A stretch of DNA of 10,899 bases from assembly GCA_046757025.1 (NCBI GenBank), contig JBHHXN010000173.1, forward strand, positions 1 through 10,899, in the 5' to 3' direction. How positions within the stretch are numbered: position 1 is the first letter of the stretch; each line of letters opens with the position of its first letter. Positions 6,303 to 10,899 of this stretch are shown one piece after another. A program made the translations under genes and the position numbers. This DNA is from a bacterium (GTDB lineage: Bacteria; Zhuqueibacterota; Zhuqueibacteria; Oceanimicrobiales; Oceanimicrobiaceae). The notes under the pieces were generated by a model. It was not told the DNA's origin and did not search any database. It worked only from the letters and a program-made list of their open reading frames with translations.

Positions 6303-7649
6303 ATGGGACGACATCGAAAAATATCTTCATCGCAACGGGCGATGTTCAAATTCCTAAGGGAACATGAAACGAAGAAGAAAACCTTCTCAGCAAGTGAATT
6401 CGGAAAAGCCGCCGGGGTCCAACCAGACACAATCCGCACATATATTTCCAAGGGATATTTTTCTGAGTTCTTGATACCTATTGGAAAGGATGATCAATTC
6501 CAAGCGCAGGGAGTAGCCGAATTATCAGAGGGTGAGTTCCACCAGAGCATTACACAAACACAAAGTCTCAGAGAGCTAGGACATTTTTGTCGTTATCCCC
6601 TCTCCAAATCATTGTTACGCAAATCTCGTGATAACATGATACTTGCTCTTGAACTATACAATCGGCCGTCTCTCGAAAATAGACTGGATGCTTTTGTTGT
6701 GCTCTTTTGCATAGCATGGGAACAGTTATTAAAGGCACAAATAGTTGAAAAATATTCTGAGAACAAAATATTCCGTGCAGCTAAAACTGGTCAGTACCGT
6801 GAAACAATTAGTTTAATGGAATGCCTTGAGCTGCTTTATGAAAGTTCAGATTTCGTGCGCAAGAATGTAGAGCAAATCAAGTTTCTTCGGGATGAGGCAA
6901 CTCATCTCCTTATGCCGGAAGTTCAAGGTTTACTATCTCTGGTCTTTCAAGCTGGAGTCCTAAACTTTGCTGAAGCCTTCAAGAAAATAGCTCAAGTACC
7001 ATTTCTGCCGCAGTCATCTGTTGGACTACTCACACTCATTATGGAGCAGAGGAAACCAACAGTAGCAGCTCTTGAATCAACTTACGGAGAAAAAACAGCG
7101 CGCGAGATGCTTGATATGATTCAAACGCTTGAAAGCAACATCAGATCAGCCAATAATACACAGTTTGCCATATCAGTCGAATACAAACTGGTGTTTACGA
7201 AATCTAAAGACAAAGCAGACATAACTCTTGCCAAAGCTTCGGGTGCTACAAGTGATGCTGTTGTCATTGACAAACCCGTCGACTATCGCCGAACACATCC
7301 ATATTTCACATCTGATGTTGTAGAGCACATTCTCAAAAAATTGCGTCAACAGTTGCCAACCGAAGAACTCAAAAAACGTGAACGATTTAACCCGAAAGGA
7401 CAAGCGATTCTTTTCAATAAGCATGACTTCTTTTCTGTCGTCTTCAAGGAAGGATGGAAAAAATCCGACAAAAACGAGTACCACTACAGCGTTCCGATCA
7501 AATCTGGAAACCAACATGTTTATTCCATGAAGGCAATGGACTTCATTGTTGACAAGATAGTGCGAGACGCTCAATATCTGTACAGAGCAAGAGACTCTTA
7601 TTCGAGAGCACGAGCCAAAAGCAGAAAACGTTCAAAAGCGACCACATAG
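6303..7649 (+). CDS. DUF3644-domain protein (HEPN-like, RxxxxH motif) with putative N-terminal HTH; probable former integron cassette
   Basis: KSRDNMILALELYNRP...AFVVLFCIAWEQLLKA resembles DUF3644. LRDEATH gives R-x4-H. N-terminal FSASEFGKAAGVQPDTIRTYISK is HTH-like. Visibly AT-richer than the flanking genes and starts about 50 bp after attC. Confidence 0.75.
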   Translation: MGRHRKISSSQRAMFKFLREHETKKKTFSASEFGKAAGVQPDTIRTYISKGYFSEFLIPIGKDDQFQAQGVAELSEGEFHQSITQTQSLRELGHFCRYPLSKSLLRKSRDNMILALELYNRPSLENRLDAFVVLFCIAWEQLLKAQIVEKYSENKIFRAAKTGQYRETISLMECLELLYESSDFVRKNVEQIKFLRDEATHLLMPEVQGLLSLVFQAGVLNFAEAFKKIAQVPFLPQSSVGLLTLIMEQRKPTVAALESTYGEKTAREMLDMIQTLESNIRSANNTQFAISVEYKLVFTKSKDKADITLAKASGATSDAVVIDKPVDYRRTHPYFTSDVVEHILKKLRQQLPTEELKKRERFNPKGQAILFNKHDFFSVVFKEGWKKSDKNEYHYSVPIKSGNQHVYSMKAMDFIVDKIVRDAQYLYRARDSYSRARAKSRKRSKATT

Positions 7650-7697: not shown

Positions 7698-9281
7698 ATG
7701 GCCAACAAAGAAAACAACAACAAATCTCTTGAAACCTGGATCTGGGATGCTGCCTGCAGCATTCGCGGCGCTAAGGACGCTTCAAAATACAAAGATTATA
7801 TCCTCCCTCTCATCTTCACCAAGCGACTGTGTGACGTTTTCGATGACGAGTTGAATCGCATCGCTGAGGAAGTCGGTTCGCGCGAGAAGGCCTTTGCGCT
7901 GGTGAAACGAGATAAAAGCCTCGTGCGCTTTTACCTGCCCCTGGAGCCGGAAAATCCAGATGAGCCTGTCTGGTCGGCTATACGCAAGCTTTCGGATAAA
8001 ATCGGCGAACGATTGACCACTTACCTGCGCGACATCGCGCGCGAGAATCCCCTCCTTCAGGGCATCATCGACCGGGTGGATTTTAACGCGACCACCCACG
8101 GCCAGCGGGATATCGAGGATGACCGGCTCAGCAACCTCATCGAAGCCATCAGCATGAAGCGGCTGGGTTTACAGGATGTGGAGGCCGACATCATCGGGCG
8201 CAGTTACGAGTATCTTATCCGCAAATTTGCCGAGGGCAGCGGCCAGAGCGCCGGTGAGTTTTACACGCCGAAAGAAGTTGGCCTGATCATGGCGAAGATC
8301 ATGGACCCGGAGCCAGGCATGGAAATCTACGATCCGTGCTGCGGCTCTGCAGGCCTGCTGATAAAGTGCGAGCTGGCGCTGGACGAGAAAATGAAGTCTT
8401 CGAACTCTGTCAGGGTTTCAAACCCTGACAGAGTTACTGGGTATGCGCCGCTCAAACTCTTTGGTCAGGAGTACACGCCCGAAACCTGGGCCATGGCCAA
8501 CATGAACATGATCATTCACGACATGGAAGGGCAGATCGAAATCGGCGACACTTTCCGCACTCCCAAGTTCCGCAAACAGAACCGGCTGCAGACCTTTGAC
8601 CGCGTGGTGGCCAATCCCATGTGGAACCAGGACTGGTTCACCGAGAAAGATTACGATGCCGACGAGCTCGACCGCTTTCCGCAGGGCGCGGGCTTTCCCG
8701 GCAAGCAGTCGGCGGACTGGGGGTGGGTGCAGCACATGCACGCCAGTCTGAAAGGCACCGGACGGGCAGCAATTGTGCTTGATACCGGTGCGGCTTCGCG
8801 GGGCTCCGGTAATGCTGGTAAAAATAAAGAAAAAGAGGTGCGCAAATGGTTTGTGGAGAACGACCTGATTGAAGGGGTAATCTACCTGCCGGAGAATCTG
8901 TTCTACAACACCAGCGCACCGGGCATTGTTTTGTTTTTGCACAAAAACAAACCGGCTGATCGCAAAGGCAAGCTCTTCCTGCTCAACGCCAGCAAAGAGT
9001 TCGAGAAGGGCGACCCGAAGAACTACATACCGGACGAAGGCATCGAGCGCATTGCTGAGACTTTTAAGGCTTGGAAAGAAGAGGACAAGTTTTCGCGTAT
9101 CGTCGGGCTGGAAGAGATTCGCAAGAACGATTACAACATTTCACCGAGTCGGTATATTCACACCGGGGAGCGTGAGACTTACAGGCCGATTGCGGAGATT
9201 GTGACGGAGTTGGATAAGTTAGAGAGGGAAGAGCGGAGCATCAACCGAGATTTACGGGAGATTTTAAGCAAGATCATGTGA
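7698..9281 (+). CDS. hsdM: Type I restriction-modification methyltransferase subunit M (N6-adenine)
   Basis: N-terminal LETWIWDAACSIRG/YKDYILPLIFTKRL, GEFYTP, SAM motif I YDPCCGSAGLL, catalytic motif IV VANPMW, LPENLFYNT, YNISPSRYI. Confidence 0.95.
   Translation: MANKENNNKSLETWIWDAACSIRGAKDASKYKDYILPLIFTKRLCDVFDDELNRIAEEVGSREKAFALVKRDKSLVRFYLPLEPENPDEPVWSAIRKLSDKIGERLTTYLRDIARENPLLQGIIDRVDFNATTHGQRDIEDDRLSNLIEAISMKRLGLQDVEADIIGRSYEYLIRKFAEGSGQSAGEFYTPKEVGLIMAKIMDPEPGMEIYDPCCGSAGLLIKCELALDEKMKSSNSVRVSNPDRVTGYAPLKLFGQEYTPETWAMANMNMIIHDMEGQIEIGDTFRTPKFRKQNRLQTFDRVVANPMWNQDWFTEKDYDADELDRFPQGAGFPGKQSADWGWVQHMHASLKGTGRAAIVLDTGAASRGSGNAGKNKEKEVRKWFVENDLIEGVIYLPENLFYNTSAPGIVLFLHKNKPADRKGKLFLLNASKEFEKGDPKNYIPDEGIERIAETFKAWKEEDKFSRIVGLEEIRKNDYNISPSRYIHTGERETYRPIAEIVTELDKLEREERSINRDLREILSKIM
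8403..8435. repeat. Perfect 33-bp palindrome (REP-like) in frame within hsdM
   Basis: AACTCTGTCAGGGTTT-C-AAACCCTGACAGAGTT: 16-bp perfect arms, exactly 11 codons (NSVRVSNPDRV). Confidence 0.9.
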
Positions 9282-9296
9282 GTGGCCGCTTATTTG

Positions 9297-9580
9297 TGTC
9301 ATTTCGAAGAACCGCCCCTTTCTATTGTCATTTCGAGGAGCGCAGCGACGAGAAATCTTAGGCTCCATGCACTGAGCAAGCCCAAAGATTTCTCGCCCGG
9401 CAAAAAACCGCCGGACTCGAAATGACAGGGCGGGTGGTGAGCGTGGCACCTCGTGTTGTTGTCATTTCGAGGAGCGGCGGCGACGGCCCTCTGTCATTTC
9501 GAGGAGCGCAGCGACGAGAAATCTTGGGCTCGGCGCACCCAGCCGAGCCCAAAAGATTTCTCGCTTCGCTCGAAATGACA
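9297..9580. repeat. Left cluster of TGTCATTTCGA palindromic (REP/RPE-like) elements
   Basis: Half-site 9297-9308, full unit 9326-9427, half-site 9460-9485, full unit 9492-9580. Consensus TGTCATTTCGAGGAGCGCAGCGACGAGAAATCTT-variable hairpin-AAGATTTCTCG..CTCGAAATGACA. Confidence 0.92.
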
Positions 9581-9605
9581 ACGGTGTAGGAGATGCGAGA
9601 ATACA

Positions 9606-9902
9606 ATGGCTAAAACCTACTACGTCTACTTACTCACGAACTGGAACAACAAGGTTATGTATGTTGGCGTGACCAACGATTTGCTACGACGGATGTATGA
9701 ACACAAACAAAAACTCGTCAAAGGATTTACTGAGAAGTACAACGTCAACAAGCTTGTCTATTTTGAGGAGACCGATGACGTGACCGTAGCCATTGCCAGA
9801 GAAAAAGAAATCAAGAAGTGGCGAAGGGAGAAAAAGAATGGGCTGGTTGAAACCACGAATCCTGAGTGGAAGGACCTGAGCGAAGGTTGGTTTGATGACT
9901 GA
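9606..9902 (+). CDS. Small stand-alone GIY-YIG nuclease
   Basis: YYVYLL...MYVGVTNDLLRRMYEHK...GFTEKY...LVYFE...AIAREKEIKKWRREKK...NPEWKDL. The Tyr/Arg/His/Glu/Asn residues typical of the family are intact. AGGAG at 9588-9592. Confidence 0.93.
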   Translation: MAKTYYVYLLTNWNNKVMYVGVTNDLLRRMYEHKQKLVKGFTEKYNVNKLVYFEETDDVTVAIAREKEIKKWRREKKNGLVETTNPEWKDLSEGWFDD

Positions 9903-9938
9903 ATCACTGCTTCCGAATTGCTCGAAACGTTCCTCACT

Positions 9939-10020
9939 TGTCATTTCGAAGGAGCGTAGCGACTGAGAAATCTTACTGGGTGAGGTGCCAAAAGATTTCT
10001 CGTATTCGCTCGAAATGACA
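9939..10020. repeat. TGTCATTTCGA palindromic element (right of GIY-YIG gene)
   Basis: TGTCATTTCGAAGGAGCGTAGCGACTGAGAAATCTT...AAGATTTCTCGTATTCGCTCGAAATGACA. Confidence 0.92.
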
Positions 10021-10027
10021 GCGGTGG

Positions 10028-10129
10028 GGGGAGCGCGCGACGTATCGAGCGATTGCGGAGATTGTGGCGGAGTTGGAGGCACGAGACACAGATCTGTAGT
10101 TACGTAAGATTTTAGACAGAATCATGTGA
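10028..10129 (+). pseudogene. Second, orphan copy of the hsdM 3' end
   Basis: Translates GERATYRAIAEIVAELEARDTDL*LRKILDRIM* versus hsdM GERETYRPIAEIVTELDKLEREERSINRDLREILSKIM*. The 28-bp core 10050-10077 matches 9187-9214 at 27/28. Confidence 0.9.
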
Positions 10130-10144
10130 GACGTCACTTTTGTT

Positions 10145-10227
10145 TGTCATTTCGAAGGAGCAAAGCGACTGAGAAATCCTTTCCGGGTATGTGCTAAAAA
10201 GATTTCTCGCATTCGCTCGAAATGACA
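10145..10227. repeat. TGTCATTTCGA palindromic element (fourth full unit)
   Basis: TGTCATTTCGAAGGAGCAAAGCGACTGAGAAATC...GATTTCTCGCATTCGCTCGAAATGACA; near copy of 9939-10020. Confidence 0.92.
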
Positions 10228-10234
10228 GCGGTGG

Positions 10235-10357
10235 GGGGAGTGCGCGACGTATCGAGCGATTGCGGAGATTGTGGCGGAGTTGGAGGACGAGGCAATAGAA
10301 AACGATTCTTCTCTTAAGAAAATCGTTCAATAATTGATGAGCCAAACATGGAATTAG
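10235..10357 (+). pseudogene. Third, orphan copy of the hsdM 3' end, overlapping the hsdS start
   Basis: Translates GECATYRAIAEIVAELEDEAIENDSSLKKIVQ*LMSQTWN*. Core 10257-10284 is identical to 10050-10077. The distal stop TAG 10355-10357 lies just past the hsdS ATG at 10348. Confidence 0.85.
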
Positions 10358-10899
10358 AATTATTAAATCTTCCAGATGATTGGAGAATAGCGCGACTTGA
10401 CGAAGCCTTCGAGTTCACTAAGAAACCTTTCGGCATGAAGATCAGAAATGGTCAACTTGTGCCTTTTATTCCAATGGATAGAATTCCAATTGGACGTCTC
10501 TTTGTTGAGGCCGCTGAAGTTCGAGAAAAAGTAGGAAGTGGAACCTACTTTGAAAATGGAGACTTCCTTCTCCCCAAAATCACACCTTCTTTTGAAAATG
10601 GTAAGCAAGCAATCGCGAGATTAGACGGTGATTACGGCTATGCAACTACGGAAGTGATTCCTATTCGAGAAAGAGAAGGCATTAGTGACACGTATTTCCT
10701 TCATTACGTTTTATTGCATCCAGAAATCAGAGCAGACTTGGCCGGTAAGATGGACGGAACGACCGGTCGACAACGCCTTCGAAAAGAAGTAGTCGCCGAT
10801 CGCCTGATCCCCCTTCCCCCGCTCCCCGAACAAAAGAAAATCGCCCACGTCCTCTCCACGGTGCAGCGGGCGATTGAGCAGCAGGAGCGCATCATTCAG
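10348..10899 (+). CDS. hsdS: Type I R-M specificity subunit S (5' part, runs off the window)
   Basis: Not in the ORF track because it has no stop. My translation: MELELLNLPDDWRIARLDEAF...FENGDFLLPKITPSFENGK...ATTEVIPI...MDGTTGRQRL...IPLPPLPEQKKIAHVLSTVQRAIEQQERIIQ. It shows the LPxxW start, a TRD, and the conserved IPLPPLxEQxxI helix. Confidence 0.95.
   Translation, partial: MELELLNLPDDWRIARLDEAFEFTKKPFGMKIRNGQLVPFIPMDRIPIGRLFVEAAEVREKVGSGTYFENGDFLLPKITPSFENGKQAIARLDGDYGYATTEVIPIREREGISDTYFLHYVLLHPEIRADLAGKMDGTTGRQRLRKEVVADRLIPLPPLPEQKKIAHVLSTVQRAIEQQERIIQ

Follow-up and report, generated by a model that had tools for sequence, protein, structure and literature searches.

The locus described here is a real Ssn-type nuclease-hairpin cassette, a variant of a published system and not a new kind of element. 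The cassette, a repeat cluster with a small GIY-YIG nuclease gene, lies between hsdM and hsdS of a type I restriction-modification operon. The window, that is, the whole stretch of DNA analysed (10,899 nt), is an entire contig of a host assembly of 5.96 Mb. Six heads of the type TGTCATTTCGA (at 9297, 9326, 9460, 9492, 9939 and 10145) and four ends of the type TCGAAATGACA (ending at 9427, 9580, 10020 and 10227) make up four full units and two half-sites. Together with an intact open reading frame of 98 aa at 9606-9902, these positions confirm the arrangement proposed in the earlier note; its spacing also holds, with the gene starting 25 nt past the upstream unit and ending 36 nt short of the downstream unit. 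Two points of that reading were refined: the units are made of two shorter monomers in inverted orientation, and the spacers, overlooked there, are decayed hsdM 3' ends. The features are as follows.

7698..9281, + strand: hsdM, type I methyltransferase, host gene (Pfam N6_Mtase and HsdM_N); its last ~115 nt are the source of the spacers
9297..9309, + strand: half-site 1, a truncated monomer head 15 nt past the hsdM stop, matching the head after spacer B
9326..9427: doublet 1, monomer on the + strand (9326-9358) and inverted monomer on the - strand (9386-9427)
9460..9484, + strand: half-site 2, a monomer without its 3' arm, directly 5' of doublet 2
9492..9580: doublet 2, monomer on the + strand (9492-9524) and inverted monomer on the - strand (9554-9580)
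9606..9902, + strand: ssn-type gene for a 98-aa single-domain GIY-YIG nuclease (Pfam, homologues, predicted fold)
9939..10020: doublet 3, monomer on the + strand (9939-9973) and inverted monomer on the - strand (9993-10020)
10028..10129, + strand: spacer B, a decayed copy of the hsdM 3' end including the stop codon; when the next head is included, identity is 68% over 145 nt
10145..10227: doublet 4, monomer on the + strand (10145-10179) and inverted monomer on the - strand (10200-10227)
10235..10333, + strand: spacer C, a second decayed copy of the hsdM 3' end, directly 5' of hsdS
10348..10899, + strand: hsdS, type I specificity subunit, host gene (Pfam Methylase_S), starting at the first ATG of the frame and cut by the contig end

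The NCBIfam hsdM model matched 7698..9281 with E 4e-60, below its cut-off. Directly upstream of hsdM, at 6303-7649, a 448-aa restriction-endonuclease-like protein (DUF3644 and EC042_2821-like) is encoded, a candidate defence gene. Inside hsdM, at 8403-8435, a perfect 16-bp inverted repeat forms a 9-residue in-frame insertion relative to the homologue in the relative G013; it looks like an unrelated REP-like element inserted into coding sequence, and seven similar palindromes occur in the genome. The four sequencing runs that contain the stretch are hydrothermal vent metagenomes from one study, which may be where the DNA comes from, and no RNA run was among those listed. Contigs from all four runs gave depth in 30/30 bins, with no single contig covering the whole stretch. 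Summed contig depth in these runs was ~60-270 at 9500-9640 and 10200-10269 versus ~10-20 elsewhere; other community members thus carry this repeat type. The promoter scan found four weak promoter-like sites (1.1 on average in shuffles); in three of these the repeat end ATGACA serves as the -35. The terminator scan found one terminator-like site, as chance predicts. A CRISPR array was rejected as a description of the locus since the units are irregular and the spacers come from the neighbouring gene, and a homing endonuclease was rejected for want of a DNA-binding domain.

Each unit consists of two inverted monomers of the form TGTCAT-TTC-GA...GA-GAA-ATC with their heads facing outward, giving eight complete monomers, four on each side of the gene. 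As ssDNA, each of the four units forms a long hairpin on either strand (z -3.8 to -9.5), and 0/200 shuffles folded as well. Taken singly, the monomers gave weak ViennaRNA folds (-1.0 to -8.4 kcal/mol), far poorer than that of the whole doublet; the case for the monomer fold therefore depends on conservation and on the sheared pairing of tandem G-A mismatches. Each monomer would begin with a short outer stem, followed by a tandem GA/GA mismatch and an inner stem, in many cases capped by a GNA tri-loop. A finder for fully paired stems detected none of the monomers of the window, and the GA-type definition that replaced it was framed after the window had been seen; for this reason the fair tests are counts in which dinucleotides are unconstrained. 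When both dinucleotides were left free, GA/GA was present in 249 of the 259 monomers of homologue loci. The next two inner pairs were Watson-Crick in 211/239 and 196/239 monomers (C-G, G-C and A-T types), a second GA/GA was present in 25/239, and GNA tri-loops accounted for 101/139. The shortest form, the monomer at 9554-9580 in doublet 2, has a GCGAAGC core; unusual stability in DNA has been described for GCGNAGC mini-hairpins and for GNA loops (PMC13037366, PMC3201870). We infer that the monomer fold is selected at the ssDNA level.

The published system is that of Chenal et al. 2025 (PMC11893778), who described the Ssn family as site-specific ssDNA nucleases (SsnA, CDD cd10448) associated with NTS/SRM hairpins, with SRMs near 71% of Ssn homologues. 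In that study four Ssn enzymes bound and cut ssDNA a few nucleotides upstream of the repeat, with differing specificities. The protein of the window carries a single domain, Pfam GIY-YIG PF01541 (residues 5-77, E 1e-17), and is shorter than 150 aa. Its predicted model (pLDDT 94.9) gave as best PDB fold match a UPF0213 GIY-YIG protein (E 4e-4), followed by Slx1; a PDB search with its sequence found no match at E 0.1, a tblastn search of the phage collection found no match, and no Ssn model of NCBIfam matched it. In a plasmid collection of 7.3 Gb, tblastn found 32 records, including one of N. gonorrhoeae with 44% identity, 98% coverage and E 4e-12. The N. gonorrhoeae orthologue, of 94 aa, has 9 exact NTS copies in 3.3 kb at its locus (L034), and the pairwise E between the two proteins was 1e-29. 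Residues Y8, Y19 and E66 of the window protein align with Y6, Y17 and E64 of this orthologue and of SsnA, the residues mutated in PMC11893778, and are invariant in 25/25 aligned homologues.

Measured against the N. gonorrhoeae orthologue and not the N. meningitidis SsnA itself, the protein lies within the published homology thresholds (E < 1e-10, > 75% length); at 44% identity to this orthologue it falls short of 60% identity to SsnA, which PMC11893778 used only as a stricter tier. The published SRM pattern matched 0/8 window monomers exactly and 3/8, the short ones, with one substitution; it had 94 sites in the host genome, none in the window, and the same script found the pattern at L034 and at a further locus (L035). 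We therefore class the cassette as an Ssn variant: the protein agrees with the tested definitions apart from the 60% tier, and its repeats escape the published pattern. Like the published systems, it has a single-domain GIY-YIG protein of ~95 aa with the same catalytic Tyr, Tyr and Glu, a patchy spread over phyla, and oriented hairpins, headed by GTCAT and ending in an ATC tail, on either side of the gene. It differs in that, in the window hairpin, a GA/GA mismatch separates a variable outer stem of 3 bases from an inner stem that is also variable, whereas NTS/SRM hairpins have a continuous stem; moreover, its protein belongs to a separate clade, its repeat is undispersed in the host, and the cassette lies between copies of the hsdM 3' end.

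Two other systems resemble the locus. Di Nocera et al. 2013 (PMC3733652) defined a superfamily of CGTC-tagged REPs including Neisseria dRS3 and Rickettsia RPE-4 and RPE-6, which share with the window repeats the CGTC/TGTC head, an AT-starting stem, a short unpaired tail and a mostly dimeric, intergenic occurrence. The families described there have stems of 8-9 bp and loops of 4-5 nt, whereas the window monomers have an interrupted stem of variable length. REPtrons, in which a RAYT (TnpA-REP) is found with REPINs or BIMEs, likewise have a small nuclease gene among inverted tagged-hairpin doublets, dispersed doublets and tandem arrays. RAYTs, however, belong to the HUH tyrosine transposases; they both cut ssDNA and rejoin it, and their REPs carry a GTAG tag. 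The window protein is a GIY-YIG hydrolase with no HUH domain. We rejected a RAYT element, in agreement with the earlier note, since the three Y1_Tnp (PF01797) matches of the host genome are all on other contigs without these repeats. None of this is new in kind: the architecture, the activity and the REP/RAYT comparison were already in print (PMC11893778). GA-type heads were absent from 13 of 14 supplements of that paper and from 4 of PMC3733652; the figures of both papers and one oligo file may show variants. Among the literature matches listed for Ssn follow-up work, the repeat heads and a 12-bp inverted repeat of the host (see below), nothing relevant was found beyond these two papers.

The association between gene and repeat extends far beyond the host. 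We collected the 79 closest homologue loci, 68 of which have 500 nt on either side of the gene. A GA-type monomer lies within 500 nt of the gene in 65/68 of these close homologues, from many phyla, and on both sides in 45/68, while the published SRM pattern was found at 1/68. Only 124 of 10,000 random host windows have a GA-type monomer nearby, and 3 of 10,000 random 300-nt host windows have one on both sides. That homologues would be no more often flanked than random genes had been named in the earlier note as a refutation of its proposal, and the comparison of 65/68 with 124/10,000 turned out the other way. Near the gene GA-type monomers reached 3.1 per kb, while 186 kb of more distant flank contained 16, a 37-fold enrichment, and the TTC stem was present in 69/79 loci. 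A doublet of the window repeat type also lies ~170 nt from a distant GIY-YIG gene, not a close homologue, in a relative (G031:C233:940-1394).

Repeat variants also co-vary with the protein phylogeny, as the earlier note had proposed to check. Four repeat classes required 5 changes on the 83 labelled rows of the protein tree, against a shuffled mean of 33.7, and 0/200 shuffles were as low. This tree pooled the closest homologue loci with others after removal of 7 rows with stops and 1 duplicate; 41/76 close homologues were left out at random, and 24 of the 107 remaining rows carried no label. The window protein falls in a starred clade of 41 rows, 40 of them of its own repeat class, in a tree of 96 columns only with 7 starred branches; among the rows labelled fully paired, a few show GA behind the stem as well. 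Since kin share labels, this result indicates co-inheritance rather than matched specificity, and such co-variation is also expected from simple co-transfer of the gene with its flanks.

These data bear on the reading that the repeats act at the RNA level or are passive, being spread by a RAYT or DDE transposase with the nuclease gene as a passenger. CGTC-tagged REPs are indeed described without a dedicated transposase and as plausibly transcribed (PMC3733652), Y1_Tnp genes exist in the host genome, and there are repeat-rich genomes with no detected close homologue. We nevertheless regard it as very unlikely, given the 37-fold enrichment beside this gene clade, the match between repeat subtype and protein tree, the absence of such repeats at the Y1_Tnp genes and the direct cleavage data for four Ssn relatives (PMC11893778); an Rfam scan of 8300-10899 gave three matches, the best with E 1.5, all far under the gathering scores. 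It is highly probable that the locus is an Ssn-type cassette in which the GIY-YIG gene is packaged with TGTCAT-headed hairpins and acts like Ssn. The protein would bind each folded monomer on ssDNA and likely cut a few bases 5' of the head, this subfamily recognising the GA/GA-mismatch shape where Neisseria SsnA recognises a fully paired stem. Of the earlier note's central proposal, that the nuclease is cognate to these hairpins and spreads them, the first part thus gains support (65/68 flanked, subtype following the tree, relatives cutting such hairpins in PMC11893778), and the second stays a hypothesis against which the genome-wide counts speak.

An order-3 Markov control predicted ~6 GA-type monomers of any stem per genome, and the host genome, counted as the earlier note had suggested, has 99. 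All 8 monomers of the window subtype are at the window locus and none is dispersed, while the TGC (52) and TCT (34) subtypes are dispersed. The window subtype is carried by 19/40 relatives. A 25-row profile retrieved no close homologue (best E 2e-12) from five repeat-rich relatives, G003 (107 copies), G014 (63), G040 (157), G001 (65) and G031 (66); their assemblies are 95-99% complete and fragmented, so that a homologue may have been missed.

These counts weigh against an autonomous selfish element, in which the nuclease would excise and insert the cassette and seed repeats, as a RAYT does with its REPINs: the host gene is intact yet its subtype is undispersed, and no close homologue was detected in the fragmented assemblies of the five repeat-rich relatives. 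The idea was raised as a hypothesis in PMC11893778, where NTS-ssnA-NTS was likened to IS200/IS605, REP and BIME elements. It would account for the occurrence of close homologues, 69-91% identical, beside unrelated genes in many phyla, for the commonest layout, an outward-facing monomer pair hugging the gene (25/49 two-sided loci), and for dispersed doublets in carriers (9 to 113 copies, 5/5 genomes). GIY-YIG enzymes hydrolyse DNA and are not known to rejoin strands, so host repair would be needed for rejoining. On balance we consider such an element rather unlikely.

A decayed second ssn family in the host genome points in addition to an ordinary transposase. The eight other ssn-like copies all contain stops, and most of them lie within an element of ~460 nt in which fully paired hairpins are enclosed by a 12-bp terminal inverted repeat. 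These sites are C28:34307-34769, C129:9742-10204 and C90:17474-17739, with others on C337, C34, C5, C109 and C259. The 12-bp repeat has 35 exact copies in the host genome, 5 paired, and one of the 5 paired copies (C129) shows a perfect 8-bp target duplication. The terminal inverted repeat and the target duplication suggest, from sequence, that a transposase acting in trans spread this family. Elsewhere a hairpin doublet (C3) or heptamer repeats (C271) lie between these ends, as in a cargo-capturing MITE. Beside the C28 element (34307), a stretch of at least 122 nt occurs with ~100% identity at more than 30 other places, often at contig ends, and is likely the end of an active insertion sequence.

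The cassette itself occurs once in the host genome. Among 80 homologous hsdM loci, many redundant and some shortened, 0 GA monomers followed the stop, and the next ORF began within 11 nt in 54; the cassette is therefore read as an insertion in the hsdM-hsdS junction. These loci lack the cassette but are only 40-78% identical, and no close empty allele of this exact hsdM was found. At ten of the 80 loci (L116, L123, L135, L141, L165, L172, L174, L175, L186 and L189), another family of small GIY-YIG proteins, 33-38% identical to the window protein, is encoded within 2 kb after hsdM; several of the nine such loci inspected have their own CTTCGACTACGCTCAG-type repeats, and small GIY-YIG cassettes thus recur at the hsdM operon junction.

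The array preserves traces of its local history. The end of hsdM has undergone a long, imperfect duplication here: when translated, both spacers B and C give a decayed HsdM C-terminus, and each starts within 7 nt of a hairpin head. A direct repeat of 90 nt (98%) joins 9990-10079 and 10197-10286. The first part of spacer B is shared with spacer C (98% over 90 nt), and its end and the following head are shared with the live hsdM; this mosaic fits what unequal crossing-over between direct repeats would give. As read from oligo lengths, SsnA cuts ~3 nt outside the head (PMC11893778). The spacer starts lie at about this position, which is cited in favour of the selfish element discussed above; the agreement fits a link between cutting and spacers but is no proof of it.

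A longer version of the array is found in the relative G013 (G013:C206:7660-9936). It has at least 9 doublets or part-doublets, two ssn genes encoding identical proteins (91% identity to the window gene; L002 and L031) and the same hsdM-derived spacers, and it runs off the contig end. This array follows a 39-nt hsdM 5' stub in a different gene context, and the intact hsdM homologue of G013 (78%) has no repeat. Among assembled contigs of the one vent study, a contig of one run (X3) skips a 207-nt module, with 255 nt on the shorter side; this could reflect either a genuine variant or a collapse during assembly. Two read joints, 9428-10050 and 10082-9605, were discounted as probably short-sided or derived from a G013-like organism. 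The array has expanded and contracted, probably by recombination. Under the Ssn-type reading, the cassette would have reached the hsdM-hsdS junction by horizontal transfer and would then have come to lie between copies of the hsdM 3' end; by recombining with each other, these direct repeats would have caused modules to be duplicated and deleted. Cuts beside hairpins would stimulate that recombination and limit uptake of repeat-bearing ssDNA, as in Neisseria.

A bolder reading, which we judge unlikely, is that the window protein belongs to a large, self-mobile Ssn subfamily, missed by the SRM pattern, that reads a DNA-specific hairpin with tandem G-A pairs and a GNA mini-loop, nicks ssDNA just outside the hairpins and leaves host repair to integrate the cassette. 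Integration would here have copied the terminal ~110 nt of hsdM and left the junction no more than 7 nt from the head. If true, part of the target gene now travels with the cassette, which could return to type I restriction-modification operons and make hsdM whole again, and the locus would provide the first footprint, in sequence, of a transposition driven by a GIY-YIG hydrolase that has REP-like repeats.

The position in a restriction-modification operon also raises the question of a domesticated ssDNA restriction factor: the gene would be retained in such operons as an additional barrier to incoming single-stranded DNA, with the repeats serving mainly as its recognition sites. SsnA lowers transformation of N. 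meningitidis with NTS-bearing DNA (PMC11893778), a restriction-modification neighbour is present at 10/72 homologue loci, and a Planktothrix homologue lies between an MmeI-type gene and drmA. The figure of 10/72 is a raw count and five of the ten share one neighbour family; the other 62/72 loci have other or unidentified neighbours, many of them housekeeping. The proteins encoded on either side of the gene (128 of 132 scanned, from 72 loci) vary widely, and several cassettes interrupt operons, for example T2SS F/G, PBP/RodA, PntA/B and mutase/MeaB, which speaks for mobility of the unit. Mobile DNA of every sort accumulates in defence islands, and this host offers such a factor no dispersed cognate sites to police; a primary role of this kind is quite improbable.

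The comparison with the published family indicates that the SRM pattern misses GA-type hairpins almost entirely (1/68 loci against 65/68), and the association of Ssn proteins with repeats is therefore likely wider than reported. Spreading of repeats by Ssn enzymes is a hypothesis in print (PMC11893778), for which the window locus and the G013 array offer concrete junctions and a variable array. The clade of the window protein is a candidate ssDNA cutter of different specificity, and it may be relevant to the ssDNA tools proposed in PMC11893778.
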